IMG/VR virus record: IMGVR_UViG_3300036900_000119
Span: 1-58,693 of that record
Length of the DNA stretch: 58,693 bases
Source of the DNA: a virus
Taxonomy: Duplodnaviria; Caudoviricetes
Strand: one strand, 5' to 3'
Under the pieces are notes generated by a model, which searched no databases, was not told where the DNA came from, and saw only the letters and a list, made by a program, of their open reading frames with translations. The stretch's first letter is position 1. Every line of letters starts with the position of its first letter. The translations under genes and the position numbers were made by a program. This document shows positions 17,088-52,020 of the stretch, piece after piece.

Positions 17088-17896
17088 ACAAGCGCCCACC
17101 CTACGTCGCTGGAACCGAACGCCCCACCGCCGCCATAATCGTTCATCATGTTCCGCTGCTGCATGTAGTCGGACACGTTGAACGAGTTGTTGCTTCCTAC
17201 ACCTCCGCCTCCACCAAACCCACCACCGCCGAGTCCTAACCCTTCCAAGCTCGCGCCTTCCTGCTGCATGTGGTGGTAGATCAACTCGTTGCCAGTCGGT
17301 TGCATGGCCGCGCCCGTCAACCCACTGATGCGCTGCGTTCGTTCGTTCGAGCGCGTGGCAAGCTGCTGCGAAATGTCGGGTCCGATGAACGCCTGAATCC
17401 CCGGTGTGTTGGCGAGTTTGAGTGAACCTATCAGGCTCGACAGCAAGCCACTTCCAAGCGCCGTATCCGCGTTCTGCTGCTGATACCCCTTGTAGATCGA
17501 CTGCAACTGTCCCGCACCGCTCCCGAACAACCCGCTCCCGACGCCCGCAATGCCGCCCAGGCGTTGCACTTCGTTCTGGAAGTCCTGGCCACCGCCGAAA
17601 AGCTTCTGGATCTGGCTGAGTTGCGCTGATCGTGCCGCACCCAACCCGGGCAGAGCAAGCTCCTGCTGCGCGTTCAACTGCTTTTGGTTTGCCGTTGAAA
17701 GCTGAGACGCGAGTCCAGTGGCCGCGCCTAAATTCTGTTGATACCCCTGCAATGCGCCCGAAGTGAGCGCGCCAAAGTCAATGCCAGGGGTGTTGGCGAT
17801 GTCTTTAAGCTGCGACAGACGCTTGTTCTGCTCGCCTGCCGCGAACAGTGTGGCGATGCCACCTTCGAGGGCACCGATGCCAGCTAAATATCCCAC
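17084..17896 (-). CDS. Small ejection (pilot-type) protein
   Basis: G/A/Q-rich 270 aa with hydrophobic N-terminus; position in operon. Confidence 0.6.
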   Translation of the reverse strand: MGYLAGIGALEGGIATLFAAGEQNKRLSQLKDIANTPGIDFGALTSGALQGYQQNLGAATGLASQLSTANQKQLNAQQELALPGLGAARSAQLSQIQKLFGGGQDFQNEVQRLGGIAGVGSGLFGSGAGQLQSIYKGYQQQNADTALGSGLLSSLIGSLKLANTPGIQAFIGPDISQQLATRSNERTQRISGLTGAAMQPTGNELIYHHMQQEGASLEGLGLGGGGFGGGGGVGSNNSFNVSDYMQQRNMMNDYGGGGAFGSSDVGWALV

Positions 17897-19102: not shown

Positions 19103-19855
19103 TTAAGGGATCACGAAGAATTGTCTGCCGCTGGGCATAATCAAATATGTGCCGATCACAGGCGGCACGATAGAGAAAGGTGTCGGCGTCACTCCTGTCG
19201 CTCCGGTGCCCGATGGAAGCGTGAACAAGTTAACCGTCGTGTCCGGTCCCGTCCCGCTGCTGATGCCTTGCACCACCGCACCGTTATACGCAGGCACCGT
19301 GAAGTTTCCCAACGTGTTGAACCCGGCTGCACCACTGAGGTACTTGCCGAAACCATGAACGTGAGATCCTACCGCGCCGTTGGCCTCAGATAATGTGACC
19401 TCTCCTGATCCGTACTGCTCGCCGACAGTAAGCGTTTTTGGTCCCGTTGTCCCCGGAACATTCCCTGGACTCATAGGAACCCTTCCTTGAGCGGGGACGC
19501 ACTCAACCCACATTGGCCCACTCGTCGGCGTCACTGCTCCCGCGCTACCGCCGTCGTACGTCACAAGCTGCGTCAAGTCGCCCGACCACAGCCTGCGCTC
19601 GTTCGCGTTGTATCCATTAGGGCAACGCCACACGCCGTTGAACGTGAATATCAGGTTTCGGAACCCGGTGTTGATCCATGGATACGCCTGAAATTCAGGG
19701 GCGGGCTTGGTGTCGCCGATGTTGTAATACGTACGGCCGTTGGCTAGCACAGCCTTCTGGAGATTCGAGAAGTCGTTCAGCAACGCTTGCCATGTTGAAA
19801 AACAATACGAAGCCGGTAAAGAGCCTGCCTGAATTGGAAGCAAAATGTTTCCCAT
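19103..19855 (-). CDS. Tail collar-like structural protein
   Basis: GRVPM..G...GE..G...VTL......H.H...PF.I.PP collar-type pattern. Confidence 0.6.
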   Translation of the reverse strand: MGNILLPIQAGSLPASYCFSTWQALLNDFSNLQKAVLANGRTYYNIGDTKPAPEFQAYPWINTGFRNLIFTFNGVWRCPNGYNANERRLWSGDLTQLVTYDGGSAGAVTPTSGPMWVECVPAQGRVPMSPGNVPGTTGPKTLTVGEQYGSGEVTLSEANGAVGSHVHGFGKYLSGAAGFNTLGNFTVPAYNGAVVQGISSGTGPDTTVNLFTLPSGTGATGVTPTPFSIVPPVIGTYLIMPSGRQFFVIP

Positions 19856-19861
19856 AAATCC

Positions 19862-21547
19862 TTACTTGTAGAGCGGCATCTTGTAGAGGTTCGTGTCTCC
19901 GCGTACCGTTACTTCCACCCAATAGATTGGCGTTGCTGGAGTTGATGGGGTTGCGTTTGTGCTCCCGTATTCGATTTGGATGTCGGCACTTGCTAAATAG
20001 AAACGACGAAACGCGCTGCTCGTGGAACCGAGGTCGATTACCGCGTCAGTGGAAGGTACGATTCGATTGTTACTAAACGCTGTAAGCCCGACGCTGCCAT
20101 CAGCGATACCCCACTGCGAAGATGCGCTGCCACCAAGAAACTTTGATCCGTTTCCGCTGTCGTCAATCGAAACGATTGTGCTGCCAGCGACGTTGCCGCT
20201 TAACTTTAGGGTTTCGACGCCCGCGCTCGCGCTAAAACGCATCGCGTTGGTTCCGTTCCAGTCCCAGTCAAACGGGCGAGGGTTTCCTGCAATCCCACTT
20301 GCCTGCGAATCGAACACGACTGCGCCGTTGGTGCCACCGTGGGAGATGGCGAGGCGGGAATAGTTGGTGAATGGCAACGAGAACAATCCCGAAACGTAAA
20401 TCGTTCCCTCGTCCCACAAATCGCCGAACGAAACAAGCTTCGATCCGAGCGTGTGTCCGTGAACATTGCCGCTGAGATTGTTGCCGATAAGCTGGAGATT
20501 GGCAGTCGAGTTGCCGAAGATGAGCGAGGTTTTATTCGCGTTCACCTGTCCGTTGTCTGACGAATCGTTGACCACGAATGAAAGTTGACCTCCACCACCC
20601 GTTTGAAGGTTCACTCCTGCTGTACCGCCGCTATTAACCACGTCCAACGCCGTCCCGGATGGGTCAAGCACAACGTAGTTGGTTTCGCCAAACCCAAACT
20701 CAAGCTTGTTCGTCACCATCACGGGTTTCGACTTGTCAATCTGCTGGAGGATGCCCGCGATGTTCGTCCAATATCCTCCTCCCGGCAGCGGCGGAGGTTG
20801 ATTCAACTGCCACCTCCCAATCTCCCGCCAATCTGGCGACACGAAGCGCAAGATGCTCACCGAAGCGTTGGTGCTTACCCAATCCGTATCACCCAAGAGC
20901 TTCACCACGCCACCGCTCGCATTGTAAACGTGGCTGTTGTTGGGGAGCGTGAACGCGCCGTTGGTATCGAAGCTGTAAATCTCAAGAATTTGAATCGTGT
21001 TCGTGCCCGCGTCGAGCGCGAGGATCACTTGCGTGGCGTCGTTGGTTGGCGATTGAAGGATGAATTGCGAGCGCGTGCCCGCCTCGATTACGTTCGTACC
21101 AAGCGTGAGCGCCTGCGACTTGGACAACATGCTCACCGTGCCTCGCGTCACGAAGTTGGAGGCGTAAAGGTAGCTGTAACTGAGTGTCGGAACGGGTTCG
21201 AGGATGCTTACGCCACCTGCCACCGAGTTCGTCCAGAGCGCATCTCCCGATGGCGTCGATCCAGCCACCGACACAAACCATAAGCCAGAGGGCGAGAGCG
21301 GGTTGACGCTCGCAAATGGGCCACGATTGGCAATGTCGTTGGTCGCCGCCACACTCCCGCGTTCAAATGTAAAAATGCCACCGAGTCCGTCGGCGAATGT
21401 CGAGCCGCACACCACGAAGACGTTTGAGTTGATCGTGCTTGCGTTAAGGTAGATCAGGTCGTTGACAGAGTTGACGGTCCAAATCTGTGCGGCGTGCGTG
21501 TTTACCGCTGCTACCACCAACCCAAGGATTGAGAGTAATCGTTTCAT
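19862..21547 (-). CDS. Fibre/spike-like protein with signal peptide
   Basis: MKRLLSILGLVVAAVNTHA-A; DGLGGIF tailspike N-terminal-type domain; P.TD...DLG..S..FR..YL fibre motif. Confidence 0.65.
   Translation of the reverse strand: MKRLLSILGLVVAAVNTHAAQIWTVNSVNDLIYLNASTINSNVFVVCGSTFADGLGGIFTFERGSVAATNDIANRGPFASVNPLSPSGLWFVSVAGSTPSGDALWTNSVAGGVSILEPVPTLSYSYLYASNFVTRGTVSMLSKSQALTLGTNVIEAGTRSQFILQSPTNDATQVILALDAGTNTIQILEIYSFDTNGAFTLPNNSHVYNASGGVVKLLGDTDWVSTNASVSILRFVSPDWREIGRWQLNQPPPLPGGGYWTNIAGILQQIDKSKPVMVTNKLEFGFGETNYVVLDPSGTALDVVNSGGTAGVNLQTGGGGQLSFVVNDSSDNGQVNANKTSLIFGNSTANLQLIGNNLSGNVHGHTLGSKLVSFGDLWDEGTIYVSGLFSLPFTNYSRLAISHGGTNGAVVFDSQASGIAGNPRPFDWDWNGTNAMRFSASAGVETLKLSGNVAGSTIVSIDDSGNGSKFLGGSASSQWGIADGSVGLTAFSNNRIVPSTDAVIDLGSTSSAFRRFYLASADIQIEYGSTNATPSTPATPIYWVEVTVRGDTNLYKMPLYK
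21533..21547. repeat. 15-bp direct repeat, copy 1 (GAGTAATCGTTTCAT)
   Basis: Identical to 24001-24015. Confidence 0.9.
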
Positions 21548-24015
21548 CGAAGTAAAAATGTGAGCCCGCTCTGGTTGGCTGTGTATCCTGTCTTGCTCGC
21601 GTTGGCGGTCAACGTGGCCGTCCCTTTGCCTGCGCTGCTCGTGTTCACTGACCAAGACGCCGTGGCTGTTCCCGTCGAATCTGTCGTCGCGTTGAAGTAA
21701 CTGATGTGTCCCTTGGGCGTTACGAGCGTGAATACCACCGAGGCTCCTGCGATGGGCGCGGCGCTTACCGTCACTACCGCCTTGAAAGTCGCCTTCTGCT
21801 TGTTGATGTAACTCGTAGAATCCGTCGTGAGAGCAACTGCAAGCAATGGTGCGGTTGGTGGAGGAGAGGCCGTTGTCACCGTTATGTCTACGGTGTCCGA
21901 TGCGGTAAGCCCTCCCGAATCCTGCACCTGCGCCGTGATCGTGTGAGTACCCATCGAGGAAGGAGTATAAGATGTACCCGCTCCCGCCCCCAAATACCCG
22001 TCAATCGAATCGCGCCACGTAATGACACTCGAAAGGTCGCCGTCTTCCGTGTCGGACGCGACCCCGTTGGCCGTCACCTGCGTTCCTTGCGGCACCGACA
22101 ACCCCGCTCCGGGGTGCGCGATATACACGAGCGGAGGCGTGTTCGAGACGACGAGCGAACCTGTCGCGTAGACAGTCACGCTCGCGGTGCCTGTCAAGTT
22201 ACCACCGTTCTTGACGCTCGCCGTCACCACGTTGGTGCCGATGGGAAGCTGCCCTTGGAAGGTTGATCCCGTTCCAAGCTGTCCTCCAAGGTTGCTGCTC
22301 CATGATAGCGACGAAGCCACGTTGCCGTCGATGGCGTCTACCGCTGTCGCCGCGAACGGAACGAGGTTGGTGGCTGCGAAGGTGACGCCGTTGGTGGGCG
22401 CGGTAATCGTCACCACCGGAGCCGTCGTGTAAGGCGCGGTGCTCGCGGAGATCTGGAGGTAAGCATTGGCGACCGCCTTCAACCCTGCCGCGTTCGTGAC
22501 GCTAGCGATGATCGCGCAATAGCCGGTGCTCGAAATTGACGCGCTAAAGCTTCCCCCGGTGCCAATCTGGACGGGTGTGACCGAACCAAGCGCCGTCGCC
22601 GTTGGGCTAATCGCCGCCGTCCACACGAGCTTGGAGGTAATGTCACCAGCCACGGGGTCGCTCGCGGTCCCTACAAAGCTGATCGAGGTCGTCGTTTTGT
22701 AGCCCCAAATCGCGTTGCCGGTGTTGGGCGACGTAATCGTGACCACTGGATACAACCCTGGATTGATCGGGAACGTGTCCACGCGCACTAACCCTTCGGG
22801 GTTCTTCTCCAAGCGCCAGTTAGGGTTGGTGAAGTTCTTGCCCCACGCGCCTTGGGGTTCGGCACTGTTGATGAGTCCTTGTCGAATCGCGTAAACCTGC
22901 GCGGCGTTCGTCGCCCTTCCGTATTGGGCAATCCAGAGAGCCGCTGCCCCCGCGACGTGCGGGCACGCCATGCTTGTTCCGCTCAAGCTCGCATACCCGT
23001 TGTTCTTGTAGGTCGAGTAAATGTTGACTCCCGGTGCCGCGACATCAATCGCCTTACCAGGCGACGTGATAGGGTTGCTCGCATCGACGTTGATCGAGTA
23101 ATTCGAGAATGTTGCGAGTGTGTCGTCGTAACCGTAGGACGTGGCTATTCCTAGCCCACCTGGAATACCGTCGCTGTCGGCCAATGCGCTCACTGTGCAT
23201 ACCTCAGGGTAGGAGGCGGGAAAGAAGTCATCGCTTGTTCCAAGCACGTTGTCCCCTCCGTAAATGTCGAAGGAGGAATTTCCTGCCGCCACAACGTAAA
23301 CGACACCAGTGCCCACGCTTGATTGAATGGCGCTGCGAAGGGCTGAACTGTCTCCCTGGCCTCCGATACTCATGCTGGCGACCTGAATCTGAGAGGCGTT
23401 CTGAGTCACCCAATCAACACCGCTGATGATCTGCGATAGCGCCCCGCTTCCGCTCGCATCGAGCACCTTAACGGCCCACAACCTTGCCCCCGGTGCCACT
23501 CCGACTACGCCAATCGTGTTGTTGATGGCTGCGGCGATGCCCGCGCAATGGGAACCGTGCCCGTTGTCATCGTTCGCGGTGAGTGTGTTGGCTACGAAAG
23601 TGACTTGCCGATTCGTGCTCACGTTCAAGTCTGGGTGCGTGAGGTCGATGCCAGTGTCGATGATGGCAATGTCGGCGTTTACCGCGTTCGTGTTGGAAAG
23701 GATGTGCGCGAACGAGTTTGATAGCGTCCCGATGCGCTGAACGCCTGTCGGCACCACCTGCGAGAACATCGTCACCGTAACGTCCGGTTCAACTGTCTTG
23801 ACGCGGGTATCGCGATTCAATCGGGAAACTTGGTTGTCGTTCAAATCCGATGCGAACCCTTTTAGGGCGTGTGTCCACCGATGTTTCATTCCGAGGCCGT
23901 GAAACCGTGCGACGGCATCTGGATCGGTGCTGTCGTCGAGTTGAATCACGTAAGGCGCGGCACTCAACCGAAAAGCCACAGCCACCAGCAGAACCGTTGC
24001 GAGTAATCGTTTCAT
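21544..24015 (-). CDS. Secreted S8 subtilisin-family serine protease with prodomain and Ig-like repeats
   Basis: Signal peptide; IIDTGID, HGSHCAG and GTSMA triad motifs intact; repeated PVVTI..P...A.D..DG domains. Confidence 0.95.
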   Translation of the reverse strand: MKRLLATVLLVAVAFRLSAAPYVIQLDDSTDPDAVARFHGLGMKHRWTHALKGFASDLNDNQVSRLNRDTRVKTVEPDVTVTMFSQVVPTGVQRIGTLSNSFAHILSNTNAVNADIAIIDTGIDLTHPDLNVSTNRQVTFVANTLTANDDNGHGSHCAGIAAAINNTIGVVGVAPGARLWAVKVLDASGSGALSQIISGVDWVTQNASQIQVASMSIGGQGDSSALRSAIQSSVGTGVVYVVAAGNSSFDIYGGDNVLGTSDDFFPASYPEVCTVSALADSDGIPGGLGIATSYGYDDTLATFSNYSINVDASNPITSPGKAIDVAAPGVNIYSTYKNNGYASLSGTSMACPHVAGAAALWIAQYGRATNAAQVYAIRQGLINSAEPQGAWGKNFTNPNWRLEKNPEGLVRVDTFPINPGLYPVVTITSPNTGNAIWGYKTTTSISFVGTASDPVAGDITSKLVWTAAISPTATALGSVTPVQIGTGGSFSASISSTGYCAIIASVTNAAGLKAVANAYLQISASTAPYTTAPVVTITAPTNGVTFAATNLVPFAATAVDAIDGNVASSLSWSSNLGGQLGTGSTFQGQLPIGTNVVTASVKNGGNLTGTASVTVYATGSLVVSNTPPLVYIAHPGAGLSVPQGTQVTANGVASDTEDGDLSSVITWRDSIDGYLGAGAGTSYTPSSMGTHTITAQVQDSGGLTASDTVDITVTTASPPPTAPLLAVALTTDSTSYINKQKATFKAVVTVSAAPIAGASVVFTLVTPKGHISYFNATTDSTGTATASWSVNTSSAGKGTATLTANASKTGYTANQSGLTFLLR
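24001..24015. repeat. 15-bp direct repeat, copy 2
   Basis: Identical to 21533-21547. Confidence 0.9.
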
Positions 24016-24686
24016 TGTTCGTTCCATCTTCCAGGGGTTATCGGCGCATAACTGAGGGGCATTATCACGCTTATTCCGTCATCAGGGTTAAGGTCTGCCG
24101 CGTTCCACCAATAGTTCCTGCCCTGCCCGTCACCCGGAGCCAAGTTCCCCCACGTCGTCGCCCAAGTGGAAAAGGCGTTGGGCGTTATCAACCTAAGCTC
24201 GGCGACGGTCGGAACCGCAAACAGTCCAGTGTTGAGCGACGGGTTAATGGGCACCCAAACAAGGCCAACGGTGTCCCAGACCCACGATTGGCTCGTCGTG
24301 GTGTCAATCCAAAGCGTGGGAACGGTGGGAATTGCAGGAGGCGCACTCGGAGAACCGTTCGTTATGACCAAACCCCACCCGTTGAGGACGATGTTCGTGA
24401 TGAATAGATTCGTCGAGTAGATGTTGGTCGCGTAAAGGTTGATGACGTAAATGTTGGTGGCGCTGATCGTCCCGCGTCCCTTGAATATGTCTGCCGTAGA
24501 AGCCCTGAACGTGTCGTTCGTCGTTCGCCCAGGATATGGCTGAATGAGCGGGAAATAGGCGGTATCTAGGACGTTCGTCGTAAGGGGTAATTGCGATATG
24601 GGTATGTTGTTCGTGACGAAGGCGCGTGCGCTCAAGGAGAGCACGATAGCGAGCCAAAGCCAAATGAGTTTGTCTGTGAGTTTCAT
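24012..24686 (-). CDS. Short fibre/adaptor-like protein with signal peptide
   Basis: MKLTDKLIWLWLAIVLSLSARA-F; ISQLP motif; C-terminal GDGQG..Y.W...DDG..VI...GRW tailspike N-terminal-type domain. Confidence 0.65.
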   Translation of the reverse strand: MKLTDKLIWLWLAIVLSLSARAFVTNNIPISQLPLTTNVLDTAYFPLIQPYPGRTTNDTFRASTADIFKGRGTISATNIYVINLYATNIYSTNLFITNIVLNGWGLVITNGSPSAPPAIPTVPTLWIDTTTSQSWVWDTVGLVWVPINPSLNTGLFAVPTVAELRLITPNAFSTWATTWGNLAPGDGQGRNYWWNAADLNPDDGISVIMPLSYAPITPGRWNEQ

Positions 24687-24688
24687 AA

Positions 24689-27331
24689 TTACGGACACCA
24701 CTCCACAACTAATTTATAATCTAAGTTAATGGCACCTATGTATCCTCCTGATTGATTAGGGAATACGGCGGTAGCGAAGAAACCTTTTCCGCTCGTTGGC
24801 AACAAATACCAAACAACGCGTGCCTGCGAGTAAGGTGTGCCGCTGGCCAAGAAGTTAGCCCAAACGGCATCCGTCCATGCCTGCAAACATCCCGGAGCGC
24901 CGTTGGTGTTAACGTAATCAGTTGGATCTGCGACGTTCGGCACGCCAACATATCCAGCAAGTGGTGGGCTTTGGAGGAAGTCCACGACTTGAAGCGGCGA
25001 CAGGTCGAACCCGTCTCCAACGCAAGGGAACGGGGCTGGCACTGGCCACACGGGAGGAACATTCGGCGCAGGAGGAGGCGGGTTCGGAGGCGGTGAACCA
25101 GGAGGCACTGGTAGCTGGTCCTCAGTGCGTATCCCAGGGCTTCCAGGTTCTTCAACGATAGGCGTCCCGCCCTCGGTGATGATGGATGGCACGTTTGATC
25201 CCCCAGGTGGTCCAGGAGGTCCCGGTGGGGTCGGAGGCGGTATCGGTGGAACTTGGCCGCACCCGTCCACGCTGTAACCAAACCAAGGCTCGTCGCACCC
25301 CTTGAGCAGCGTGCAATCCTCGGTGGTAGGGCAGCCCTGAACGACGCTATCGGACATCTCCGCTGACCACGTATGAACGCGGTTCCATTGCAAGAAACCT
25401 TTCCACCACATGTACAGTTGAAACTCGTATCCCGTCCTAGGGCTTCTCCGTGTGATCGGTGAGCATGGCGTGTCGCTTGGGTCCGGCAATCTGACGTAGG
25501 TGCGATACTGCTCCTTAACGTCCTGAAAGGTGGGGCAATCGGCGGTTCTGCAATCGTGGATCGGAGCGCAAAGCTGGAATTCGTGCCAACTATTCCAGAA
25601 CGGATCTTCGTCGCTGCGATACTTGAACATGATCGTCACGTCGTCGTTGCCAGCGAGGCGGTCCAAGTAAAGGTCAGCGCACAAGAGGCGCTTCAACTTG
25701 TTGCCATTGTCACTCCATCCCATCGAGCGCGTCTCGATAACCGATTCCGTGGCTACGTCCTGCGTGCCGTCCCAATCGAAGTAGCCTTGCTCGTCGCGCA
25801 GAAGCTCCCAGAGCTGAATGTCGTTATCGCACCCGATGGCGAACGCGAAGCAACGATCCACGCCGTTGAACGTGCCCTTGATGATCTTGAGGATGCGAAC
25901 GCCCGTCCAAAGCCCGTCGTAGCACGGTTGCGAGCGCGTCGTGAGCGTGCTCACGTTGTTGAAGTCCAGCGCGATCAATCCACGGCAAGCCACGCCGCGC
26001 CCGTCAATCGTGAACGGCGCGCACCCCATGAGCAGCCGATTGTTGAATAGGACGCCGCTGATATTACCAAGCAACTGCTGCGTGTCGCGCAAGAGCACCC
26101 TTTCCATCTCCACGCTCAAGGGTGTATTCACCCAAGTCCCAATGTCCCTGCGCCCGACTTGGTAGGATCGAATCCCGTCGATGCTGCGATACCACAAGTC
26201 GCCATTGACCGTCACAAGAGCGTTCTGCCCTGTCGTGCCGTAATTGGGAAGGCTCACCACAACCAATGGCGATTGGCTCTGGAACCAGAGCGCCCTGTCC
26301 AGCGGCACGTTCACGCTGAACACGGAGTTGTGCGTCATCACGACGAGCGAGCCTTGGCCGAGGCTCGTGTCCATGACCGCCGTTGTGCCCATGCCGGTGA
26401 TCGGTCCTGCGCTCACGGGCACCGAGAAAGGCGCACCACCGCTGAAAAGGGAAAGCTCCTGCGTTTGGAGCACCGCCGATCTTCCATCGTAGCCGTCCGT
26501 GAACCCGTGCGTGTAAACCAAGTCCCCCGCCATGTAGCTGTTGCTTGGTCCTTGGTTGGTCCCGGCAAGCACCATCCACACGCGTCCTTGGACATAGACG
26601 CCCATGCACCCCGCTGGCAGTTCGTTTCCAGCCTGCCCAAGAGAACGCCGCGTGCTTGCCCCGTCGAAGAACAAAGGATCAGCCGCACCATTCTGGACGA
26701 TCAAGAAATCCTCGGCTTGCCACATCCATGCGTTAGGATTGGTGGCGTCGTTCAAATCGCTGTAGATGACGGTGGCACCTGCCACCACGACGCCCGTTGC
26801 TATCCCGTCCACGTTCGACACCTCCAAGTGCGAGCTGTCGATGATCGAAACGACGATGTAATTAGCGCCCGCAATGATGATGCGCGTGTTCGGTTGGAAA
26901 CCCGTGGTGGAAGTCACCGGCACCGTCACGTTTGTTCCGATGGCTGGAATTGTGAACCCCGGCGCAATTACGGTTGTGGTCTTGTTTACGGAAATGTCAT
27001 CAACGGTGTTGCTTCCGTCGCCTACGAGATAGCGGAACAGCCTGCCTCCGATGCTCGCCACAAGGCAGCTATCACCACCACCGAATGCCTGATAAAAACT
27101 CGCGTCCTGAAATAGTGCCTGCGTGGCGTTGGCTTGCGTGGAGGCGTCAGGAAACGTGAGCGCGAGTCGGCGATAAAGAGGACGTGTTCGAGGAAGCCCG
27201 TTGCGGAACGTGACGTTGATGGCGAACGCGACTTGATCCTGAGGAAGTAGGCGAGGTTGCACTCCAGAATGCATTCCGGAGCGAATGATACTCACCCCAT
27301 CTGCTGTTGCTCCTGTAGACGGAGGAGGCAC
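24689..27331 (-). CDS. Putative tail nozzle/tail tubular protein B
   Basis: 880 aa; GM.SG..P.LL....A.N start; beta-rich; Pro-rich C-terminal extension. Confidence 0.65.
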   Translation of the reverse strand: MPPPSTGATADGVSIIRSGMHSGVQPRLLPQDQVAFAINVTFRNGLPRTRPLYRRLALTFPDASTQANATQALFQDASFYQAFGGGDSCLVASIGGRLFRYLVGDGSNTVDDISVNKTTTVIAPGFTIPAIGTNVTVPVTSTTGFQPNTRIIIAGANYIVVSIIDSSHLEVSNVDGIATGVVVAGATVIYSDLNDATNPNAWMWQAEDFLIVQNGAADPLFFDGASTRRSLGQAGNELPAGCMGVYVQGRVWMVLAGTNQGPSNSYMAGDLVYTHGFTDGYDGRSAVLQTQELSLFSGGAPFSVPVSAGPITGMGTTAVMDTSLGQGSLVVMTHNSVFSVNVPLDRALWFQSQSPLVVVSLPNYGTTGQNALVTVNGDLWYRSIDGIRSYQVGRRDIGTWVNTPLSVEMERVLLRDTQQLLGNISGVLFNNRLLMGCAPFTIDGRGVACRGLIALDFNNVSTLTTRSQPCYDGLWTGVRILKIIKGTFNGVDRCFAFAIGCDNDIQLWELLRDEQGYFDWDGTQDVATESVIETRSMGWSDNGNKLKRLLCADLYLDRLAGNDDVTIMFKYRSDEDPFWNSWHEFQLCAPIHDCRTADCPTFQDVKEQYRTYVRLPDPSDTPCSPITRRSPRTGYEFQLYMWWKGFLQWNRVHTWSAEMSDSVVQGCPTTEDCTLLKGCDEPWFGYSVDGCGQVPPIPPPTPPGPPGPPGGSNVPSIITEGGTPIVEEPGSPGIRTEDQLPVPPGSPPPNPPPPAPNVPPVWPVPAPFPCVGDGFDLSPLQVVDFLQSPPLAGYVGVPNVADPTDYVNTNGAPGCLQAWTDAVWANFLASGTPYSQARVVWYLLPTSGKGFFATAVFPNQSGGYIGAINLDYKLVVEWCP

Positions 27332-27334
27332 GGC

Positions 27335-28573
27335 CTAAGTGGTTTCCTTTTCTATTTCCAGCGTTGCGTAAATCTCACTCGTCGCAAATCCGTTGGGCTT
27401 TCCAAAGCCATTGGTCCCATTTGTCGTCTCGGCGTGGAGTTGCAATCGGAACTGCTGTCCCGCGCCTGCCGTCGCCGTCGCCCTTGCCCATCCCGTGCTC
27501 GTCGTCTGCTCGTCGCTCGCCACGAGCGCCCTGCCGTTCAACCCAAGCGCCACCACAGTTCCTACGCCTTGCACAAGTTGCGTGGAGAAGTTGTCCACCT
27601 TGTAGCCAAGCACGCTCCATCGGAAGCGATACGTGCCAACCGGAAGCGTGACGACATTGGCAATCAGCGTTGTGCCGGCGGGGGTGTCCAGCACAATGAC
27701 ATTCAAAGGCACGTCGATGTAGGAGCCACTCGCCACTGCACCGGAGTCGATGTTCGTGTTCTCCTGATGCTGGAGAATGATCCAACCACCAACAAGTCCC
27801 GCTCCCGGCGAAATGGATACGCCCGTAATCGAGCCGCCTGTGATGTTGACGTTGTTGGAGTTCTGAGTCGCCATGGTGCCAAGACCAAGAGCGGTCCTCG
27901 CCGCCGCCTGAGTTGGCGTTGTAATGCCGTTCGCAGTCGCGGCGACCATCATCCCCGCCGTCAAACCTCCGTTGCATGGCGCTACAAAGCCATCAGCGAT
28001 ACCGAGTGGCCGACTTGAAACAACCCCGCTTCCACCACCAGCCAGCTCCATCAAACCATCAGGCAAACCCGATAGCGCCTGCGCGTTCGTCAGCGAGCCG
28101 TTGGGCGTTTGCGTGATATACGTCGCGTCTGCGGGTGCTCCGCTTGAACCCGCTGTTCCAGTCGGCCCTTGCAACCCCGCCGGTCCAACTGTGCTCGACG
28201 TTGGGAAAACTGTGCCCGGTGGACTGTTGACGAGGTATGCGCTCGCCGCCGTGTTGGCGATGTTAACGAGAGTGACGTGCGTGGCGTCCGGTGCTTGACT
28301 CACGGCGAAATACCCGAAGCTACCGCTGCCCAACTGACCCACGGCAACGACTTGGCCAACGACTGCCCATGCGCTCACGAGAACGTCCACGGTCACAACA
28401 TCACCCTCGGCGGGCATCGTGAACGGAGCCGTAGTCGCGGTGAACGAATCGCGTCCGTTTGTGCCATTGGTGCCAGTGGCGCCCGCAGGACCTTGCGGCC
28501 CTGGTATGTTCTGGACGAGCGGCGAAGGGCATGGCCTATCGCAACAGTCGGCGCTTTGAAGGAGTTCGCTCAT
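27335..28573 (-). CDS. Tail fibre protein with collagen-like triplets
   Basis: GPQGPAGATG; AARTALGLGTMATQN..NV.ITGGSITG; no signal peptide. Confidence 0.75.
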   Translation of the reverse strand: MSELLQSADCCDRPCPSPLVQNIPGPQGPAGATGTNGTNGRDSFTATTAPFTMPAEGDVVTVDVLVSAWAVVGQVVAVGQLGSGSFGYFAVSQAPDATHVTLVNIANTAASAYLVNSPPGTVFPTSSTVGPAGLQGPTGTAGSSGAPADATYITQTPNGSLTNAQALSGLPDGLMELAGGGSGVVSSRPLGIADGFVAPCNGGLTAGMMVAATANGITTPTQAAARTALGLGTMATQNSNNVNITGGSITGVSISPGAGLVGGWIILQHQENTNIDSGAVASGSYIDVPLNVIVLDTPAGTTLIANVVTLPVGTYRFRWSVLGYKVDNFSTQLVQGVGTVVALGLNGRALVASDEQTTSTGWARATATAGAGQQFRLQLHAETTNGTNGFGKPNGFATSEIYATLEIEKETT

Positions 28574-31306: not shown

Positions 31307-31671
31307 ACCCCTTTTCAGCAGCACTCCGTTACCGCCGTGCCAAACGCGAATGGCTTGGTGCTGGAGGGTTGCCCGTATCACAAACACTCGCCGATTCCCG
31401 CGCAGCCGTATGCAAGACGTGCCCAAAGAACCAACCGCATCCGATTTACCAAAACCTAGCGGCTCCGGTGGCGCTCCAACTTCGACGCCAGATCGAGGCA
31501 AAGGCGCAGATGAAACTCGCGGTGAACGGCGAAAGCGACTTGCACATTTGCGAAGTTTGTTGGTGCGTCCTATCTCTGAAGGTTTGGGCGCCAATCCAAG
31601 TGGCGTCGAAGGGTCTGGATCTAGCAACGCTTCCTGATTTTTGCTGGATACGAAAGGAGCTTGGAAAGTGA
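31303..31671 (+). CDS. Zinc-binding hypothetical protein
   Basis: R...C..CP.N...C..C.C....K...CW. Confidence 0.75.
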   Translation: MNPFSAALRYRRAKREWLGAGGLPVSQTLADSRAAVCKTCPKNQPHPIYQNLAAPVALQLRRQIEAKAQMKLAVNGESDLHICEVCWCVLSLKVWAPIQVASKGLDLATLPDFCWIRKELGK

Positions 31672-34067: not shown

Positions 34068-34633
34068 ACATCACGCTTCCACCGCCATCTATCAACACTT
34101 GGCAATCGCCATTCGAGCTTGAGCTGCTTCTCCTGCACTTTCGCCACGCTTCGCCAAAGCACATCTGCGAACTCGGGAGTGCTGATGGTGGCTCAATCTG
34201 GTGTTGGGCGCACAACTGCGTTCCTGGCGCTCATATTCTCTCGGTGGACTGGTGGAAAGACGACGTTGGATACCCTGACAACCGCATCCAATATGGCCAT
34301 TGGGCTTTGCGCAACACCTGCACGATTGACTGGGTCAAAGGCGACACCCGAGACGACGCCACACTTAACCGCGTGAGAGAGTTTGCTCCGTTCGATTGGA
34401 TGTTCATCGACGCGGGGCACGCGCTTATTGATGTGACGAGCGATTGGGAACGGTATGGTCCCCTCGTTTCTCCTGGAGGGATCGTGGTTTTCCACGACAT
34501 CACGCCCAACATGCGCCCCAATCAAGTTGAGGTGCGTCTGCTTTGGGACCGTTTGAAGGAGACTCGAAGGCACGTCGAGATCATTGAGAACGCGAAGGAC
34601 GATAAGCTTGGAACGGGGATATTATGGGTCTGA
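34064..34633 (+). CDS. Class I SAM-dependent methyltransferase (Methyltransf_24-like)
   Basis: ELGSADGGS; FDWMFIDAGH; PGG.VVFHD. Confidence 0.88.
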   Translation: MNITLPPPSINTWQSPFELELLLLHFRHASPKHICELGSADGGSIWCWAHNCVPGAHILSVDWWKDDVGYPDNRIQYGHWALRNTCTIDWVKGDTRDDATLNRVREFAPFDWMFIDAGHALIDVTSDWERYGPLVSPGGIVVFHDITPNMRPNQVEVRLLWDRLKETRRHVEIIENAKDDKLGTGILWV

Positions 34634-43843: not shown

Positions 43844-44167
43844 ATGGTCGCAGATCCCTGCCTTTCACCTCCCGCGTCGTGTGATTTGTGGATTTACCAG
43901 TCTCCCGGTGAGCAACGATTTCTCCTGCTCCAACTGCTCAATGCGCTTCTCACCTCGCCACAGACGCTCGATCAACTCAAGACCGACAGCAACGGGTGGT
44001 GGTGCCAAGGCTCACCTGCCAAGCTGCGCGCTCTCCAGGCGCAAATGGTCGCCACCGATCTTTCAGGGGCCGTCACGGCGCAACCGATCTGTTGGACTCC
44101 ACTCCAACTTGAAGGCGCAATATCGTACGTGACATGCAAGCTGCTCGGGCAGATGTCGATTCGGTAA
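43844..44167 (+). CDS. Small Cys-rich putative virion protein
   Basis: Diverged C..G....L.A motif; follows capsid gene. Confidence 0.65.
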   Translation: MVADPCLSPPASCDLWIYQSPGEQRFLLLQLLNALLTSPQTLDQLKTDSNGWWCQGSPAKLRALQAQMVATDLSGAVTAQPICWTPLQLEGAISYVTCKLLGQMSIR

Positions 44168-44180
44168 CACGATTACCATC

Positions 44181-44417
44181 ATGGCCGCGCCCGATTGCTC
44201 AACGCAAACGCTCACAACGGATGGCGTTTGCCTCGTCCAAGGAATGTCGGTTCACCAACTCCTTGCGTACATCGCCTACCAACTGGCGGTCAACGCTGGA
44301 CAGGAGCCTATCGCGTCCAACCTCGTGAACCTATCGCGTTGTTTGGCGCAAGGCATGGGTGATCGGCAGTTGTTGGCTGCGATAGCCTTCCTGCAATGCG
44401 AATTGGCGGGGGTTTAA
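44181..44417 (+). CDS. Small Cys-rich putative virion protein with internal duplication
   Basis: CLVQGMSVHQLLA / CLAQGMGDRQLLA. Confidence 0.7.
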   Translation: MAAPDCSTQTLTTDGVCLVQGMSVHQLLAYIAYQLAVNAGQEPIASNLVNLSRCLAQGMGDRQLLAAIAFLQCELAGV

Positions 44418-44421
44418 TTCC

Positions 44422-44619
44422 ATGGCATGTGACGCTCAAACGCTTGTGTCCGGGACGAGGTGCGTCGTTCAAGGAATGGCTCCGCGCCAACTCGTAGCGG
44501 CGTGGGCGCAAGGAACCTGCGCTCCGATTCCACCGCCTCCAGAGGGAGGCGGCATAACCACCGATCCCGGTGGAGACATTATCACAACTTACGGTGGCGT
44601 AATCATCGTCCCCGACTAA
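44422..44619 (+). CDS. Small Cys-rich protein with C-terminal candidate docking peptide
   Basis: CVVQGMAPRQLVA; Pro linker; ITTDPGGDIITTYGGVIIV. Confidence 0.68.
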   Translation: MACDAQTLVSGTRCVVQGMAPRQLVAAWAQGTCAPIPPPPEGGGITTDPGGDIITTYGGVIIVPD

Positions 44620-44623: not shown

Positions 44624-47086
44624 ATGCGATTTATCCTCTCTCTCTTACTCGCGTTCCCGCTGACCATTGGTGCTGCCACAACCATTTCGTTCTCCAACAT
44701 CTCACTCACCAACGTCGTAAAGACCAACGACCTAGTGCTTGTGGATAGTGCTCTTGGAGGAACGAACTACGCGACAAGGACGGCTACGGTTGGGACGGTG
44801 CTGGCGTTGGTTGGCGGCGGCGGCTCCGGCAACGTCACCGCCAGCGGCACAAGCGAGGTGGGATCGACACTTGTCACCAAGGATACTTCAAGCACGAACG
44901 TCCAAGCCGGAATATCGGGTCTAATCAATGTGCGAAACCCGCCCTTCAACGCAGCAGGGGACGGAATCACTGTGGACAATACCGCCGTAATTGCAGCCAT
45001 TGGATACGCCGCTACGAACGGAGGAATTGTCTATTTCCCACGCGGCAGCTACCTCATCACAACGAATCTTTGGTTGCCAAAGACGATCGGAGACACGTTC
45101 AAATCCTACCGAATTACTGGAGACATTAACGGGCAGACCGGAAACTATTCAACCAACTTGGCTCCGGCAACCACGGAACTAATCCTTCGCACATCCATTG
45201 GCCCTGCAAAGATTGTGTCGCTTTGGGATGGTCTAGTCGAAATCGACCACATCCAACTTCGAGATGACACGGATGGAACTGTTCCTTTCATCTACACGAC
45301 TTCAACAACGCTGAGTATCCATGACGTTAGTTTTTACGGAAAGCCGACAGCGACACCAAGTAGCGTTGTCCAAGATGCAATCATTCTTGGAGGGACAGGA
45401 ATCAGTGCAGCCACTGGCAGCACGAACGACACTTTTCGAGGCTACGGGACAATCATAGATCACAACTGGTTTGCATTAATCCAGCGCGGCGTTTACATGC
45501 GATACACCTGCAATGCCGTTGTCGTTAAGAACAATAACTGGTGGTATTTCTGCGGAGGCAGGTGCCCAATCGAAATCCTCGGAGATGTTACGCCTTCATT
45601 TCAAGACGGAGCGAACATTATACGAGACAATTTGATTGAAATGACCAGTTACACATACGCCTACGTTCTCAACCATGCCGACTACAATCAGTTTCTCCAG
45701 AACGGACTGTGGGACTGCAACTTTTTCAATTCCAATAACCATCTGTATTCAATAGACAACAGCAGCTTTAATGTATTCGCAGATTTGCCAGTCAATAGCG
45801 TTCCTGGGGGGACACTGGCGCTTGGTAATTCCATTCTCAACAACAGCTTTGTTTCTAGTTTCGATTATACCAAGATAGCATTGCCAGTGCCGCATGATCC
45901 TACCGGAAGAAGCTCTGGAAGCGTTTGGGCAACGCCTCAATCCTTCGTCGGGGACTGGCATGGCACAAACGACTACAAGGGTCAGGTGAACGCAGGTGAT
46001 CCCAACAGTACAAATTCTTTAAGCATGGGTTACAACGCTACAACCGGAAACGCCACCCTGGACGCGAGTGGGGGCGCTATTCCATTGCTTGTTAACGCCT
46101 CCGTTCTAAACAGCGCGAACGGGTTTAGTCGAAACGGCACGAATGGCATTACGGGAACATTTACGTTTACTGGAACGAACGCGGGCGGAGCCCTGGTGAC
46201 AAACATCGTAACTGTCTCTGGCGGGATAATCGTTTCATGGCTGCCATCTCCACCACAACCGCCTACGGGGTTGTCAGGATATATTACCAACGGCACAAAC
46301 ATCTATCTTACTTGGACGGCTTCATCCGGAGCTACTGGATACCAGATTGGGCGTAGCACAACTAGCGGATCTGGCTACAGCGTCATTGGCACAAGCGCAA
46401 CAACCTTTTACACGGACGTTGGACCTTCTCCTGCTTCTTATTATTACGTCGTGGCGGCTACAAATGGGCAGGGGGTAGGAAACTATTCGAGCGAAGTATC
46501 AATCAATAATAATTTCAGCCCGACTAACATAGTAGGATTAGCTTACTGGTGGGATTGGAACACGCTTCCACAAGGCGCGTTAACAACATGGACTGACAGC
46601 GTTACGCATGTCGTGTTGACCCATACGCTAGGGTCTATTGCGACCAACACCACAACGGGGGTCTATTTTGCATCGGCGTCGGATTATGAACTTCCTCTCG
46701 GCGGTATTACAACTACAAATGCCTCGTTTTGGCTGGATATAATTCCTGATTCGCCTCCGGGTCATTGGGAATACATTTTCACAGGCGCAGGAGACGGTTT
46801 CCTGATCGACCCGACAGGCTTCAAGTTTTGGTATGTCAGCGACGTTGCCTCTATGACAGGCAATACAGAATGGAATAACGTATGGGTGTCAGGTGGAACT
46901 ACATACACAAACGGGGTGAGTAGCACCTCGACTGCCAATAGGACAACACAATTACTGCAATCGCTTAACGTGAATTCAGGATCACAGGCTTACCTAGGCC
47001 ATATTAAGCACATCGGAATTTGGACGAATACCACTTTGAGCGCGACGGATGCGGCCAATCTAAACACTTACGGAATCGCACATTAA
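44624..47086 (+). CDS. Spike/depolymerase-like protein with signal peptide (beta-helix, Fn3, LamG-like domains)
   Basis: MRFILSLLLAFPLTIGA-A; NV...FNAAGDGITVD...A...VYFPRGSY; PTGL...LTW..S.GATGY...YYYVV.A.N..G. Confidence 0.82.
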   Translation: MRFILSLLLAFPLTIGAATTISFSNISLTNVVKTNDLVLVDSALGGTNYATRTATVGTVLALVGGGGSGNVTASGTSEVGSTLVTKDTSSTNVQAGISGLINVRNPPFNAAGDGITVDNTAVIAAIGYAATNGGIVYFPRGSYLITTNLWLPKTIGDTFKSYRITGDINGQTGNYSTNLAPATTELILRTSIGPAKIVSLWDGLVEIDHIQLRDDTDGTVPFIYTTSTTLSIHDVSFYGKPTATPSSVVQDAIILGGTGISAATGSTNDTFRGYGTIIDHNWFALIQRGVYMRYTCNAVVVKNNNWWYFCGGRCPIEILGDVTPSFQDGANIIRDNLIEMTSYTYAYVLNHADYNQFLQNGLWDCNFFNSNNHLYSIDNSSFNVFADLPVNSVPGGTLALGNSILNNSFVSSFDYTKIALPVPHDPTGRSSGSVWATPQSFVGDWHGTNDYKGQVNAGDPNSTNSLSMGYNATTGNATLDASGGAIPLLVNASVLNSANGFSRNGTNGITGTFTFTGTNAGGALVTNIVTVSGGIIVSWLPSPPQPPTGLSGYITNGTNIYLTWTASSGATGYQIGRSTTSGSGYSVIGTSATTFYTDVGPSPASYYYVVAATNGQGVGNYSSEVSINNNFSPTNIVGLAYWWDWNTLPQGALTTWTDSVTHVVLTHTLGSIATNTTTGVYFASASDYELPLGGITTTNASFWLDIIPDSPPGHWEYIFTGAGDGFLIDPTGFKFWYVSDVASMTGNTEWNNVWVSGGTTYTNGVSSTSTANRTTQLLQSLNVNSGSQAYLGHIKHIGIWTNTTLSATDAANLNTYGIAH

Positions 47087-47154: not shown

Positions 47155-47385
47155 ATGGACATTATTCCAATCGTAGCAGCCATCAGCGGCGAAAGCGTCG
47201 TGAACGCCGTTATTTGGATCGTCGTCGCGGCCCTCATTTACTTCGTCGTTATGTGGGGTATCGAGAAGATTGGCATTCCTGAGCCGTTCCATAAGATCGC
47301 CATCGCACTCGTTGTCCTGATGGTCGTCGTCCTGCTCGTAAACGCGCTCCTCACAATCGCGGGGCATCCGTTCATTCGGTGGTAA
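47155..47385 (+). CDS. Two-TM membrane protein, holin candidate
   Basis: Two hydrophobic helices separated by IPEPF. Confidence 0.65.
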   Translation: MDIIPIVAAISGESVVNAVIWIVVAALIYFVVMWGIEKIGIPEPFHKIAIALVVLMVVVLLVNALLTIAGHPFIRW

Positions 47386-47390
47386 TCGGC

Positions 47391-47702
47391 ATGTCCGAAG
47401 GCATCGAGCTTCGAGAATACGTGGAGCGCCTGTTCGACGAGCGCGAGAAAGCCGCCGAACTCGTCGCCACGAACTTAGAGCAACGCCTCGACAAGCTGAA
47501 TGAACTGAGGGCGGAAGTGATGAAGGACCGCGACCAGTTCTTGAAGAAAGACCTCTACGATCAGATGCACGCGGGGCTGATGGATCGCGTTTACAAACTT
47601 GAGGCGTTCCAAAGTCGATTGATCGGCCTCGGCACCGCTCTAGTCGTCGGGGCGGGCATCATCAGCGCGGTGATAACGAAAGTATTTTTCCAAACCAAAT
47701 AA
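47391..47702 (+). CDS. Coiled-coil protein with C-terminal TM helix
   Basis: RLDKLNELR; hydrophobic C-terminus. Confidence 0.68.
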   Translation: MSEGIELREYVERLFDEREKAAELVATNLEQRLDKLNELRAEVMKDRDQFLKKDLYDQMHAGLMDRVYKLEAFQSRLIGLGTALVVGAGIISAVITKVFFQTK

Positions 47703-47714
47703 ACGCCGCTCTTT

Positions 47715-48062
47715 ATGGAGACAGAAAACGGAAACCACCTAGTTGAACCCATGGAAAACCCGCCAATCGCCGGTGAAAACGTAACCCTTCGGGTTGTCTC
47801 TATCATTGGGTTCTTAAGCATCTTTGCCTTGTGCATCTGGTGGGCGGCGAATTTACAGGGGGACGTTAGGACCATGCAGGCTGATCTTGCGGGCATAAAG
47901 ACAAGCATCCAGAACTTGTCCAAGGTGGAGATGGTTCAGAATGAATTGCGCGAGGTAAAGCAGTACGGCAGCGACGTATCGCGCAAGCTGGCGCTCGATT
48001 TCATCGACATGAAGCGCGATTTCGAGTTGTTCAAGGTGAGGCAGTCGGCAACAACGAAATAA
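47715..48062 (+). CDS. TM plus coiled-coil protein
   Basis: VVSIIGFLSIFALCIWWA followed by heptads. Confidence 0.65.
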   Translation: METENGNHLVEPMENPPIAGENVTLRVVSIIGFLSIFALCIWWAANLQGDVRTMQADLAGIKTSIQNLSKVEMVQNELREVKQYGSDVSRKLALDFIDMKRDFELFKVRQSATTK

Positions 48063-48066
48063 ATCC

Positions 48067-48363
48067 ATGCTCAAACTGAATTGGGAACTGTGGCTGTACG
48101 GACTTTTGGCTGGCGTGATCGGTGGCGCATCCACCGCTGCGTTGTCGTGGGCTGGGTTGGGCGCGGCGCACTCGGCGGGGCTGGATGTGCCCACGCTCAA
48201 CTTCAAAGCCTTAGGCATCGTGCTCATTAGCGGTGCGGCTCCGTCGTTTTTTGCTTACCTCAAGCAACAGCCGCTCCCGCCCATCGTCACGACAGAAACA
48301 ACGATAACGGTGACGGAAAAGAAAGCGGCTGATCCGGTGGTTCCGGACCCCGTTAAGCCTTAG
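48067..48363 (+). CDS. Holin-like membrane protein
   Basis: WLYGLLA..IGG...YLKQ.PLP; two hydrophobic segments. Confidence 0.6.
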   Translation: MLKLNWELWLYGLLAGVIGGASTAALSWAGLGAAHSAGLDVPTLNFKALGIVLISGAAPSFFAYLKQQPLPPIVTTETTITVTEKKAADPVVPDPVKP

Positions 48364-51847: not shown

Positions 51848-52020
51848 ACTTTTCGCGCACCCTTGCGGTCGTGTTCCGCCAAACGCGCCGCAGCGAACGT
51901 CCCCTCTCGTCGCCCCGCAAATGGCCGGGTGGGGTGCGCGCCTTTCCCCCGCAGCCGCTTCCTCAAGCCCCGTCACTCCAGCGGGCTGCCGCGTTTCTCC
52001 GTTCAAGCGAAACCGCGACG

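Follow-up and report, generated by a model that had tools for sequence, protein, structure and literature searches.

The cytoplasm is regarded as the place where the fibres and tailspikes of tailed phages fold and assemble; what, then, is the role of fibre- and spike-like proteins that begin with secretory signal peptides and are encoded in the late operons of such a phage? The question is raised by a complete virus record of 58,693 bp from the Caudoviricetes (IMG/VR record IMGVR_UViG_3300036900_000119), the whole of which is here termed the window. Four of its genes are at issue: three consecutive ones on the minus strand within the tail operon, namely A (24012..24686, 224 aa), B (21544..24015, 823 aa) and C (19862..21547, 561 aa), and a fourth, D (44624..47086, 820 aa), in the plus-strand late operon. 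To our knowledge, the exported proteins described from phages are small exclusion, lysis-control or muralytic proteins. The novelty here lies in large proteins of spike ancestry (trimeric-fibre, beta-helix, lectin- or immunoglobulin (Ig)-bearing) with conserved Sec signals in late operons, and in their recurrence in an abundant uncultured soil phage family, in which a backbone gene has 533 related IMG/VR stretches and gene C has 112 clusters of homologues. Judged from their sequences, the signal peptides of these spike-like proteins are a real, conserved and unusual feature; the proteins carrying them may act late, after export, on the envelope of the infected cell.

The signal peptides were called with our own rule-based caller, which looks for the organisation recognised by Sec and signal peptidase I: a positively charged n-region, an h-region made up of about 8-15 uncharged, hydrophobic residues, and small amino acids in positions -3 and -1. 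All four N-termini have a K/R-bearing n-region (MKLTDK in A, MKR in B and in C, MR in D), an uncharged hydrophobic core of at least 10 residues and small residues at -3/-1 (ARA/F, LSA/A, THA/A and IGA/A, respectively, with the slash at the predicted cleavage site). The predicted peptides comprise 22 aa in A (nt 24621-24686; MKLTDKLIWLWLAIVLSLSARA, followed by F), 19 aa in B (nt 23959-24015; MKRLLATVLLVAVAFRLSA, followed by AP), 19 aa in C (nt 21491-21547; MKRLLSILGLVVAAVNTHA, followed by AQ) and 17 aa in D (nt 44624-44674; MRFILSLLLAFPLTIGA, followed by AT). Neither a twin arginine (Tat) nor a lipobox Cys at +1 is seen in any of these N-termini. The caller flags 6 of the 40 window open reading frames (ORFs) of at least 150 aa: the four genes at precisely the starts for which a preliminary description of the window had claimed Sec-type signals (24686, 24015, 21547 and 44624), the ORF at 53272-53880, and a glycosyltransferase-like ORF at 31641 that is a probable false positive. 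As controls, the caller was applied to 9509 internal positions, of which it flags 31, and to 153 internal methionines, of which it flags none, and shuffled N-termini yield a mean of 0.74 per 40 (maximum 3); hence, the number of signal peptides in the window is not a matter of chance. The same description had named a fibre starting at 28573, a ‘nozzle’ and the capsid as lacking such signals, and the 412-aa fibre, the 880-aa protein meant by ‘nozzle’ and the 597-aa capsid-position protein are all unflagged.

Conservation in homologues, on which the idea of export turns, is likewise observed. A search of 1.84 billion representatives at E<=1e-3 gives gene C 112 clusters of homologues, not counting itself, and under the strict rule 90 of these 112 bear a signal peptide, as against 0 of 119 homologues of the 880-aa protein. 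About 10 of the 22 C homologues that escape the call have starts called inside the signal peptide, just before the conserved mature motif, and the remainder are fragments or have other N-termini; a looser count of hydrophobicity gives 92 of 113 C-family proteins. For gene D the strict rule finds a signal peptide in 3 of 12 homologues. The letters of the signal peptide vary across the C homologues, yet the n-h-c organisation is kept and the conserved motifs start at the predicted cleavage site, for example A-[TAN]-P-[ST]-F-x-S-F-x-T-N-D-F in many members of the family and N-[IV]-P-I-S...A-Y-F-P-L-I-Q in the type to which A belongs. On this evidence the signal peptides are selected for, and export by Sec is the plain reading of the points tested.

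The starts themselves are marked by tight spacing. The ATG of A lies 2 nt past the stop of the gene for the 880-aa protein (TAAttATG), those of B and C lie in ATGA overlaps with the stops of A and B, respectively, and that of D lies 4 nt past the stop of a 65-aa ORF; an alternative ATG upstream of B, at 24027, would add just MERT. This coupling favours the upstream starts assumed in the preliminary description, against which may be set the in-frame downstream GTG and TTG codons present inside the signal-coding stretches of A-D. The signal-coding 5′ ends of B and C (23982-24015 and 21514-21547) are also 79% identical over 34 nt, suggesting that one signal-coding segment was duplicated between the two genes.

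Downstream of its signal peptide the product of gene A consists of a conserved module at the N-terminus (NIPISQLPLTTNVLDTAYFPLIQ...), then a TN-rich repeat and lastly, at the C-terminus, a domain of ~100 aa. No homologue of similar length was found for it; phmmer aligns its residues ~20-100 with the N-termini of six C-family proteins (E 1.3e-30 to 1.1e-16). When mature A is modelled in three copies, the prediction is an intertwined trimer, with a score of 0.83 versus 0.00 for the best control and with contact agreement of at least 81% and a predicted local distance difference test (pLDDT) value of at least 77 across the runs; the mark applied is reached by 20 of 30 solved pairs and by 1 of 23 single chains, counts that are made rough by the use of an alignment of our own and of three copies. 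Gene A is accordingly modelled, and predicted, as a homotrimeric fibre.

The product of gene C combines the signal peptide and an N-terminal module with a tailspike-type beta-sandwich (residues ~139-248), a TN-rich fibre region (TNYSRLAISHGGTNG...) and a conserved C-terminal tail. Its AlphaFold2 (AF2) monomer has a pLDDT of 55 overall and of 84-95 per 10-residue block over residues 141-250; for both C and D the AF2 model is poor except within a single domain, and our fold claims are limited to those domains. The C domain superposes on an Acinetobacter phage tailspike (24qj_A; Z 10.9, root-mean-square deviation (rmsd) 2.5, 91 residues), on 6o38_A (Z 10.2), on the N-terminal region of CBA120 TSP4 (7rej_A; Z 8.8, rmsd 3.0, 95 residues), and, with Z 8.4 in both cases, on a baseplate chain from a Klebsiella phage and a capsid spike from a Pseudomonas phage; the row that comes next in the fold search is unrelated and stands at Z 5.4. 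The last 122 aa match the tail fiber family phrog_7121 (7e-4); apart from this tail, PHROG scans of the N-terminal modules and of the small neighbouring proteins return nothing below E 0.02. Neighbouring Atlas clusters of C are viral and include T4 gp9/10-like ones, all with scores <0.9 and of use as leads only. The family profile retrieves just 3gw6 from the PDB, at E 0.027; this match was left unused, and no clear S74 domain is present here. The C-family consensus contains a conserved PRPFNFDxNGTN, which includes a D-x-N-G-T sequon, and N-x-S/T occurs 2.1-2.2 times per 100 residues in C and D versus <=1.3 in the other long genes, an excess that may reflect N/T-rich composition only.

Gene B is of another kind. 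Its translation reads as a complete pre-pro-subtilisin: the signal peptide is followed by an I9 propeptide (Inhibitor_I9, 2.7e-5, 25.2 bits, cut-off 21.2), an S8 subtilisin domain (Peptidase_S8, 1.1e-46, 159.8 bits, cut-off 21.8) with the motifs DTGID, HGSHCAG, AAGNS and GTSMACPH that supply Asp, His, Asn and Ser, and, after the catalytic domain, ~420 aa of Ig-like repeats. It matches the protease family phrog_3677 (5.9e-64) and the PDB subtilisins Carlsberg, BPN' and KerA (about 4e-44). By these features it looks like an ordinary, generic pre-pro-protease of the secreted type, that is, a free secreted enzyme. S8 domains are present in 60 cultured-phage records, 50 of which are Bacillus phages.

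The product of gene D has a fibre-type N-terminal stretch after the signal peptide, a right-handed beta-helix (residues ~100-410), an FN3 domain (542-622; a 2.4e-10 match to 3mpc, FN3-like) and a C-terminal part without an assigned fold. Eleven of its 12 homologues match through residues ~100-400 and one (P0236) only through the FN3 repeats. AF2 is confident solely for residues 100-410, the beta-helix, for which Foldseek retrieves both phage proteins (the Det7 tailspike 6f7k at 7.5e-7, Phi92 gp150, AM24, HK620 and Sf6) and secreted ones (a glucanase and other glycanases, epimerases such as AlgE6, and an adhesin). With a GC content of 0.50 and a third-position GC content (GC3) of 0.53, against a GC3 of 0.62-0.78 in eleven other long genes, D has a composition that suggests recent acquisition. 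By prediction and fold likeness, A, C and D thus appear to share the architecture of fibres and tailspikes, in agreement with the earlier assignment of such motifs to three of the four genes: A through its predicted trimer, C through its domain and D through its beta-helix, with B as the subtilisin among them.

The genomic setting of A, B and C is that of an accessory cassette. They are bordered on the left by the gene for the signal-peptide-less 880-aa tail-module protein (24689..27331, minus strand) and on the right by a 250-aa backbone gene (19103..19855, minus strand); beyond the 880-aa gene lies the signal-peptide-less 412-aa fibre (27335..28573, minus strand), with a Cys-rich N-terminus and a collagen-like stretch. 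The 880-aa protein receives no name from Pfam, PHROG or PDB profiles, and for this reason its label ‘nozzle’ reflects gene order only; its nearest Atlas clusters are viral. In relatives the 880-aa homologue is directly followed by the 250-aa, 384-aa and later backbone genes. The closest of these, L001, has an 880-aa homologue that is 60% identical and shares the C-terminal extension, followed at once by the 250-aa gene, and lacks A-B-C. Across 119 loci tblastn at 1e-4 gives no match to A, B or C, compared with 38 for the fibre, 93 for the 880-aa protein and 77 for the 250-aa protein; in all 38 the fibre homologue is upstream of the 880-aa homologue, and the homologue in one relative, G002, has a Phage Tail Collar domain (1.2e-13). 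Since A-B-C is absent from L001 and from all the other loci and its flanks are conserved, it is best described as a translationally coupled 4.8-kb insertion into a conserved junction. Its GC3 of 0.67-0.69 is like that of its neighbours, and a scan of the sigma-70 type finds 4 promoter-like sites where 3.8 are expected and 7 terminator-like sites where 10.7 are expected, none of them at the junctions. Of the marks of a moron, accessory distribution and absence from close relatives are therefore seen, and a promoter or terminator of its own is not.

Large proteins with signal peptides recur beyond the window. Ten related records (G001-G010) were taken in full and their genes called with the same rules, giving 11 genomes with the window. 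Six of these encode such proteins: the window; G001 (461 aa, and 674 aa with Beta_helix and pectate-lyase-like domains); G002 (377 aa); G003 (five in succession, of 567, 497, 1268, 261 and 1680 aa, with LamG, Beta_helix, five Big_7, PKD and CBM_4_9 domains); G005 (356 aa); and G009 (1464 and 422 aa). The other five (G004, G006, G007, G008 and G010) have only lipoproteins or none. Every one of the large proteins is genome-specific, and the proteins present in at least 5 of the 11 genomes all lack signal peptides, the ORF at 31641 and its likely spurious flag excepted. In the window and G001-G003 the large proteins lie between the capsid-position gene, together with small proteins devoid of signal peptides, and a cassette of small transmembrane proteins, after which lipoproteins often follow. 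The small proteins are represented in the window by three ORFs of 107, 78 and 65 aa (43844..44619, plus strand) with paired cysteines, which lie between the capsid-position gene and D and find no family match in domain or PHROG scans; similar ones, sharing the N-terminal motif MACDxQTL...C, precede the signal-peptide genes in G001 (L091:15548-15946 and 17331-17726) and G002 (19597-20052). The conserved 412-aa fibre likewise begins with a Cys-rich motif (CC..C).

The membrane cassette of the window consists of four small proteins directly after D (47155..48363, plus strand; 2, 1, 1 and 0 transmembrane-like windows), three of them with predicted transmembrane segments and some with coiled-coil-like stretches. 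Their PHROG matches to holins and spanins are weak (E 0.12-0.36), and the cassette resembles lysis genes of the holin or spanin style without a recognisable muralytic enzyme. D and its counterparts in the relatives adjoin these holin- or spanin-like proteins, with their putative role in lysis, and A-C do not. No muralytic Pfam domain (lysozyme, amidase, transglycosylase or other) is detected among the 75 window proteins scanned, nor among the scanned G001-G003 proteins of at least 110 aa; in G001 a papain-type Peptidase_C1 protein (2.4e-10) stands beside the small transmembrane protein of the cassette. G002 encodes, 700 nt apart, a 377-aa protein with a signal peptide (L087:18458-19591) and a 235-aa protein without one (L088:294-1001) that share a distal domain of ~220 aa (E 2.4e-75), so that one and the same binding domain exists both with and without an export signal.

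The C family, too, is found in phages of this kind. The 20-sequence C alignment has no stretch conserved enough for a pattern scan, C-family patterns in IMG/VR gave no confirmed case, and of two pattern scans of Joint Genome Institute (JGI) metagenome contigs the first found none and the second two short contigs, L118 and L119, the only ones for which the genomic context of C homologues was read. L119 has, in order, a beta-helix protein, an FN3-like protein with a signal peptide, two transmembrane proteins, a lipoprotein and a C-family gene with a signal peptide; one of its transmembrane proteins is 48% identical (E 2e-33) to the window protein encoded at 47379-47702. L118 has a lipoprotein, a 65-aa ORF and a C-family gene with a signal peptide. 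These neighbourhoods indicate that the C family belongs to phages of the present type.

From this combination of features we infer export itself, a site of action and a benefit, which in the reading we favour, at somewhat less than an even chance, are as follows. A, C and D would derive from phage tail fibres and tailspikes, with B as a pre-pro-subtilisin. All four would be made late, translationally coupled to structural genes, exported by the host Sec machinery and cleaved by signal peptidase I. Outside the cytoplasm A, and probably C and D, would fold as trimers and B would mature by removal of its propeptide, and the products would then act on the infected cell's own envelope rather than as built-in parts of the particle. 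The conserved module after the cleavage site could anchor or assemble the proteins at an envelope component, with the distal parts binding or cutting surface glycans (as in the case of the D beta-helix) and surface proteins (in that of B). The likely pay-offs would be an easier escape through the outer layers, and the removal or masking of receptors, which would spare progeny from being trapped by the dying cell and its debris. What favours this envelope-directed role is that the cassette is accessory, that B is a typical free secreted enzyme, and that D and its counterparts adjoin a lysis-like cassette; that muralytic Pfam domains are missing from the proteins scanned in the window and G001-G003, with the papain-type peptidase of G001 beside its cassette; that G002 holds two copies of one distal domain, of which one is exported and the other is not; and that bacteria export phage-type fibres and spikes acting at their own surface.

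The two parallels behind the last point are instructive. In Bdellovibrio bacteriovorus the mosaic adhesive trimer (MAT) proteins comprise 21 fibres with a conserved ~130-aa domain right after the signal peptide, phage-fibre-like shafts, variable tips and a surface location (PMC10769870). Both they and the present proteins are multi-member families with a signal peptide, then a conserved N-terminal domain (beta-rich in MATs), a shaft of the phage-tail-fibre-like trimeric type and mosaic, exchangeable distal parts, and MATs act outside the cytoplasm at the surface of their producer. This layout is found here in the signal peptide followed by a conserved N-terminal module, which A has in common with six C-family proteins, and in mosaic distal parts. 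MATs differ in being encoded by the bacterium, whereas A-D stand in phage late operons, and the C-family profile matched no MAT chain in the PDB, in which only C-terminal MAT fragments are solved. Pantoea stewartii WceF is an exported trimer with the tailspike fold (PMC7949094) that resembles D in its tailspike-type right-handed beta-helix and N-terminal export signal and acts on its producer's own exopolysaccharide. It differs from D in having a Tat signal and a chromosomal gene in an exopolysaccharide cluster, D being of the Sec type (no RR) and located in a phage beside a membrane-protein cassette.

Among phages the nearest likenesses are partial. The C domain superposes on the N-terminal region of CBA120 TSP4 (7rej_A, with 7rfv_A as a further match), and the TSP2/TSP4 system resembles the present one in that several different spike-like proteins are encoded together. 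The N-termini of TSP2 and TSP4 serve for docking in a branched multi-tailspike assembly; the CBA120 spikes are not known to have signal peptides and are built in the cytoplasm as parts of the virion. Exported proteins encoded among late or tail genes include lambda Lom and Bor, T5 Llp and T4 Sp. T4 RI is another exported phage protein (PMC8385771), and endolysins of the Sec type are known (PMC8951688). All of these are phage-encoded, carry a Sec or lipoprotein signal and function in the infected cell's envelope, and the genes of some are neighbours of tail-fibre or lysis genes; they are small single-domain or muralytic proteins, none of them known to be a large trimeric fibre or spike or a subtilisin. 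The Sec endolysins differ further in that A-D and the scanned window proteins have no muralytic domain.

Several observations weigh against action on the envelope. The signal-peptide proteins of G003 (261-1680 aa) take up ~12.7 kb of a 58-kb genome, which is large for an accessory role, and G003 and G001 have few other receptor-binding candidates. G004 has an 897-aa beta-helix spike lacking a signal peptide in the post-capsid slot, suggesting that the signal-peptide proteins are functional counterparts of virion spikes. The best-modelled domain of C is of the type used in branched tailspike assemblies; A-B-C is coupled to tail genes with no promoter or terminator of its own; domain scans recognise no enzyme domain in A or C; and export is judged by hand-made rules. 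A low cysteine content as a mark of export was considered and dropped, the signal-peptide proteins having 0.84% Cys and the spike-like proteins without signal peptides in the relatives 1.19%.

Much of this would be accommodated if the signal-peptide proteins are the real receptor-binding spikes, folded in the periplasm and docked on finished particles when lysis merges the compartments, with gene B possibly processing them in the periplasm. We consider this doubtful. It would explain why they fill the slot held by the spike of G004, why G003 has five large ones and only a 127-aa protein in its fibre slot, and why the genes are late and coupled to tail genes; the attachment-style, tailspike-type domain of C (Z 10.9, 10.2 and 8.8), the predicted trimeric fibre of A and conserved modules after the signal peptide, recalling the anchor-and-variable-tip layout of receptor-binding proteins, would also be in line with it. 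We know of no precedent for such docking in tailed phages, however, and a non-exhaustive search of the open-access literature brought up no phage fibre or spike described as bearing a Sec signal. Because L001 has a similar 880-aa protein and the same 250-aa gene without A-B-C, no dedicated docking partner is apparent; moreover, a conserved fibre without a signal peptide is present, B looks like a free secreted enzyme, and dilution would limit docking after lysis. In its boldest form, in which a soil podovirus-like family builds the particle in two compartments, with the capsid, tail core and one fibre in the cytoplasm and Sec-exported host-range spikes that mature in the periplasm and snap on at lysis, the proposal is unlikely; the spikes would then perhaps be cut by the co-encoded subtilisin or decorated via the glycosyltransferase block. 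The G004 spike bears on this comparison in one further respect: the pattern in its N-terminal domain is suggestive of homology to the N-terminal module of C, and this was not accepted, as phmmer supports only the start of the beta-helix.

The system of exported virion appendages put forward in the preliminary description thus stands in part. The signal peptides are real by sequence rules, conserved, and carried by fibre- or spike-like proteins in late operons; attachment to the virion is the conjectural part. A-B-C is accessory, a conserved fibre without a signal peptide fills the fibre slot, and B is an ordinary protease of the secreted type. The alternative that it mentioned, in which the proteins are displayed on the infected cell or act there, is no worse a fit, and a solved bacterial parallel exists for it in the MAT fibres of Bdellovibrio. 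A variant of the envelope-directed role, in which exported copies mask the receptor of the virion fibre, was dropped: within the window no domain is common to any two of A-D, or to one of them and the 412-aa fibre. Such a pair does occur in G002.

A rather improbable alternative is that the genes are host-benefit cargo of the moron or auxiliary kind, a secreted protease with glycan-active and adhesin-like proteins that help the host cell to feed or adhere while a long infection or a carrier state lasts and have no part in phage release. The accessory, genome-specific distribution, the generic extracellular-type subtilisin, the fold of D, which is common to secreted glycanases and adhesins, its outlying composition and the soil source are all compatible with this. 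Such cargo would sit uneasily with the tight coupling of the genes within the tail operon and the lack of their own promoter or terminator; further, no integrase or repressor family is found among the 75 scanned window proteins, and A and C belong to a family that is seen next to phage cassettes and has fold matches to phage spikes. Least probable is that the hydrophobic N-termini go unused for export, with downstream starts yielding cytoplasmic proteins or the segment serving, on the cytoplasmic face, to tether the protein to the membrane or to assist assembly: the internal GTG/TTG codons and the use of rules in place of a trained predictor or experiment leave some room for it, but the n-h-c organisation is kept in 90 of 112 divergent homologues whose sequence is not, the ATGA overlaps and stop-adjacent ATGs mark the upstream starts, and B needs export to be a sensible pre-pro-subtilisin.

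If action on the envelope is correct, spike modules would have been redeployed as exported tools on the surface of the infected cell; if docking at lysis is, appendages would join the particle outside the cytoplasm. Either would be new for tailed phages. There is also a consequence for annotation: homology would label such genes ‘tail fibre’, ‘depolymerase’ or ‘auxiliary metabolic gene’, yet the compartment may differ. With no recognisable endolysin and a glycosylation block in this family, the question of the host envelope becomes directly testable once a host is found.

The window has no tRNA genes and is organised as two divergent late operons with their junction near 28.6 kb. On the plus strand a terminase-position gene (28700) is followed by a glycosyltransferase/methyltransferase block, then by the portal-position gene (840 aa), a scaffold-like gene and the capsid-position gene (41943; 597 aa), and after these by D and the four small membrane proteins; the minus-strand operon has the 412-aa collagen-like fibre (28573), the 880-aa protein, A, B and C, and conserved proteins of 250, 384, 270, 470 and 978 aa. 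Pfam and PHROGs name few of these genes, and the structural names therefore derive mostly from gene order and relatives. Searches with the region DNA, gene C and the 880-aa protein find no match among 50,697 cultured-phage records, and an IMG/VR search with the terminase-position protein finds no relatives. The 880-aa protein, in turn, marks a large uncultured podovirus-like family, with 244 proteins at E<=1e-3 among the candidates scored and 533 confirmed IMG/VR stretches, many on 52-58-kb contigs with terminal repeats; matches on two contigs of metagenome-assembled genomes (Dehalococcoidales and Binatia) may be binned phage DNA. The DNA of the record is present in one soil-metagenome sequencing run, possibly its source, and no RNA run is listed.

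The glycan block (31641-35286 in the window) is also present in G001 (L091:758-6337), G002 (L087:7380-12853) and G003 (L093:7325-11305), mostly between the terminase- and portal-position genes, and contains glycosyltransferases (GT1, GT2), Methyltransf_24, FkbM, a radical SAM/SPASM enzyme and a sulfotransferase-like gene, the last of which lies in the tail operon of G002 instead (L089:15113-15703). It may hint at glycan modification of the virion, of exported molecules or of the host surface. Further plus-strand candidates for envelope direction lie at 50853-54451: a lipobox-like FVGC at 50853-51485, a long hydrophobic N-terminus at 51482-51847, the flagged signal peptide with weak DUF4082 and choice-of-anchor R matches at 53272-53880, and a hydrophobic N-terminal segment with Big_7 (1.1e-9) at 54152-54451. 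Two HNH endonuclease genes are present (40995-41684, 1.6e-14; 52693-53199, 2.8e-11), one of which separates the scaffold- and capsid-position genes and is read from the other strand; relatives have genes of this kind in comparable places. A strong match to DUF6745 (8.2e-47) lies at 58004-58522, where the record ends on the right. At the left end (1-590), ~45 tandem copies of a 12-nt unit fall within ORF 34-507, which reads as PNAV/PNAG tetrapeptide repeats and could be either a real repeat protein or an artefact of the assembly end.

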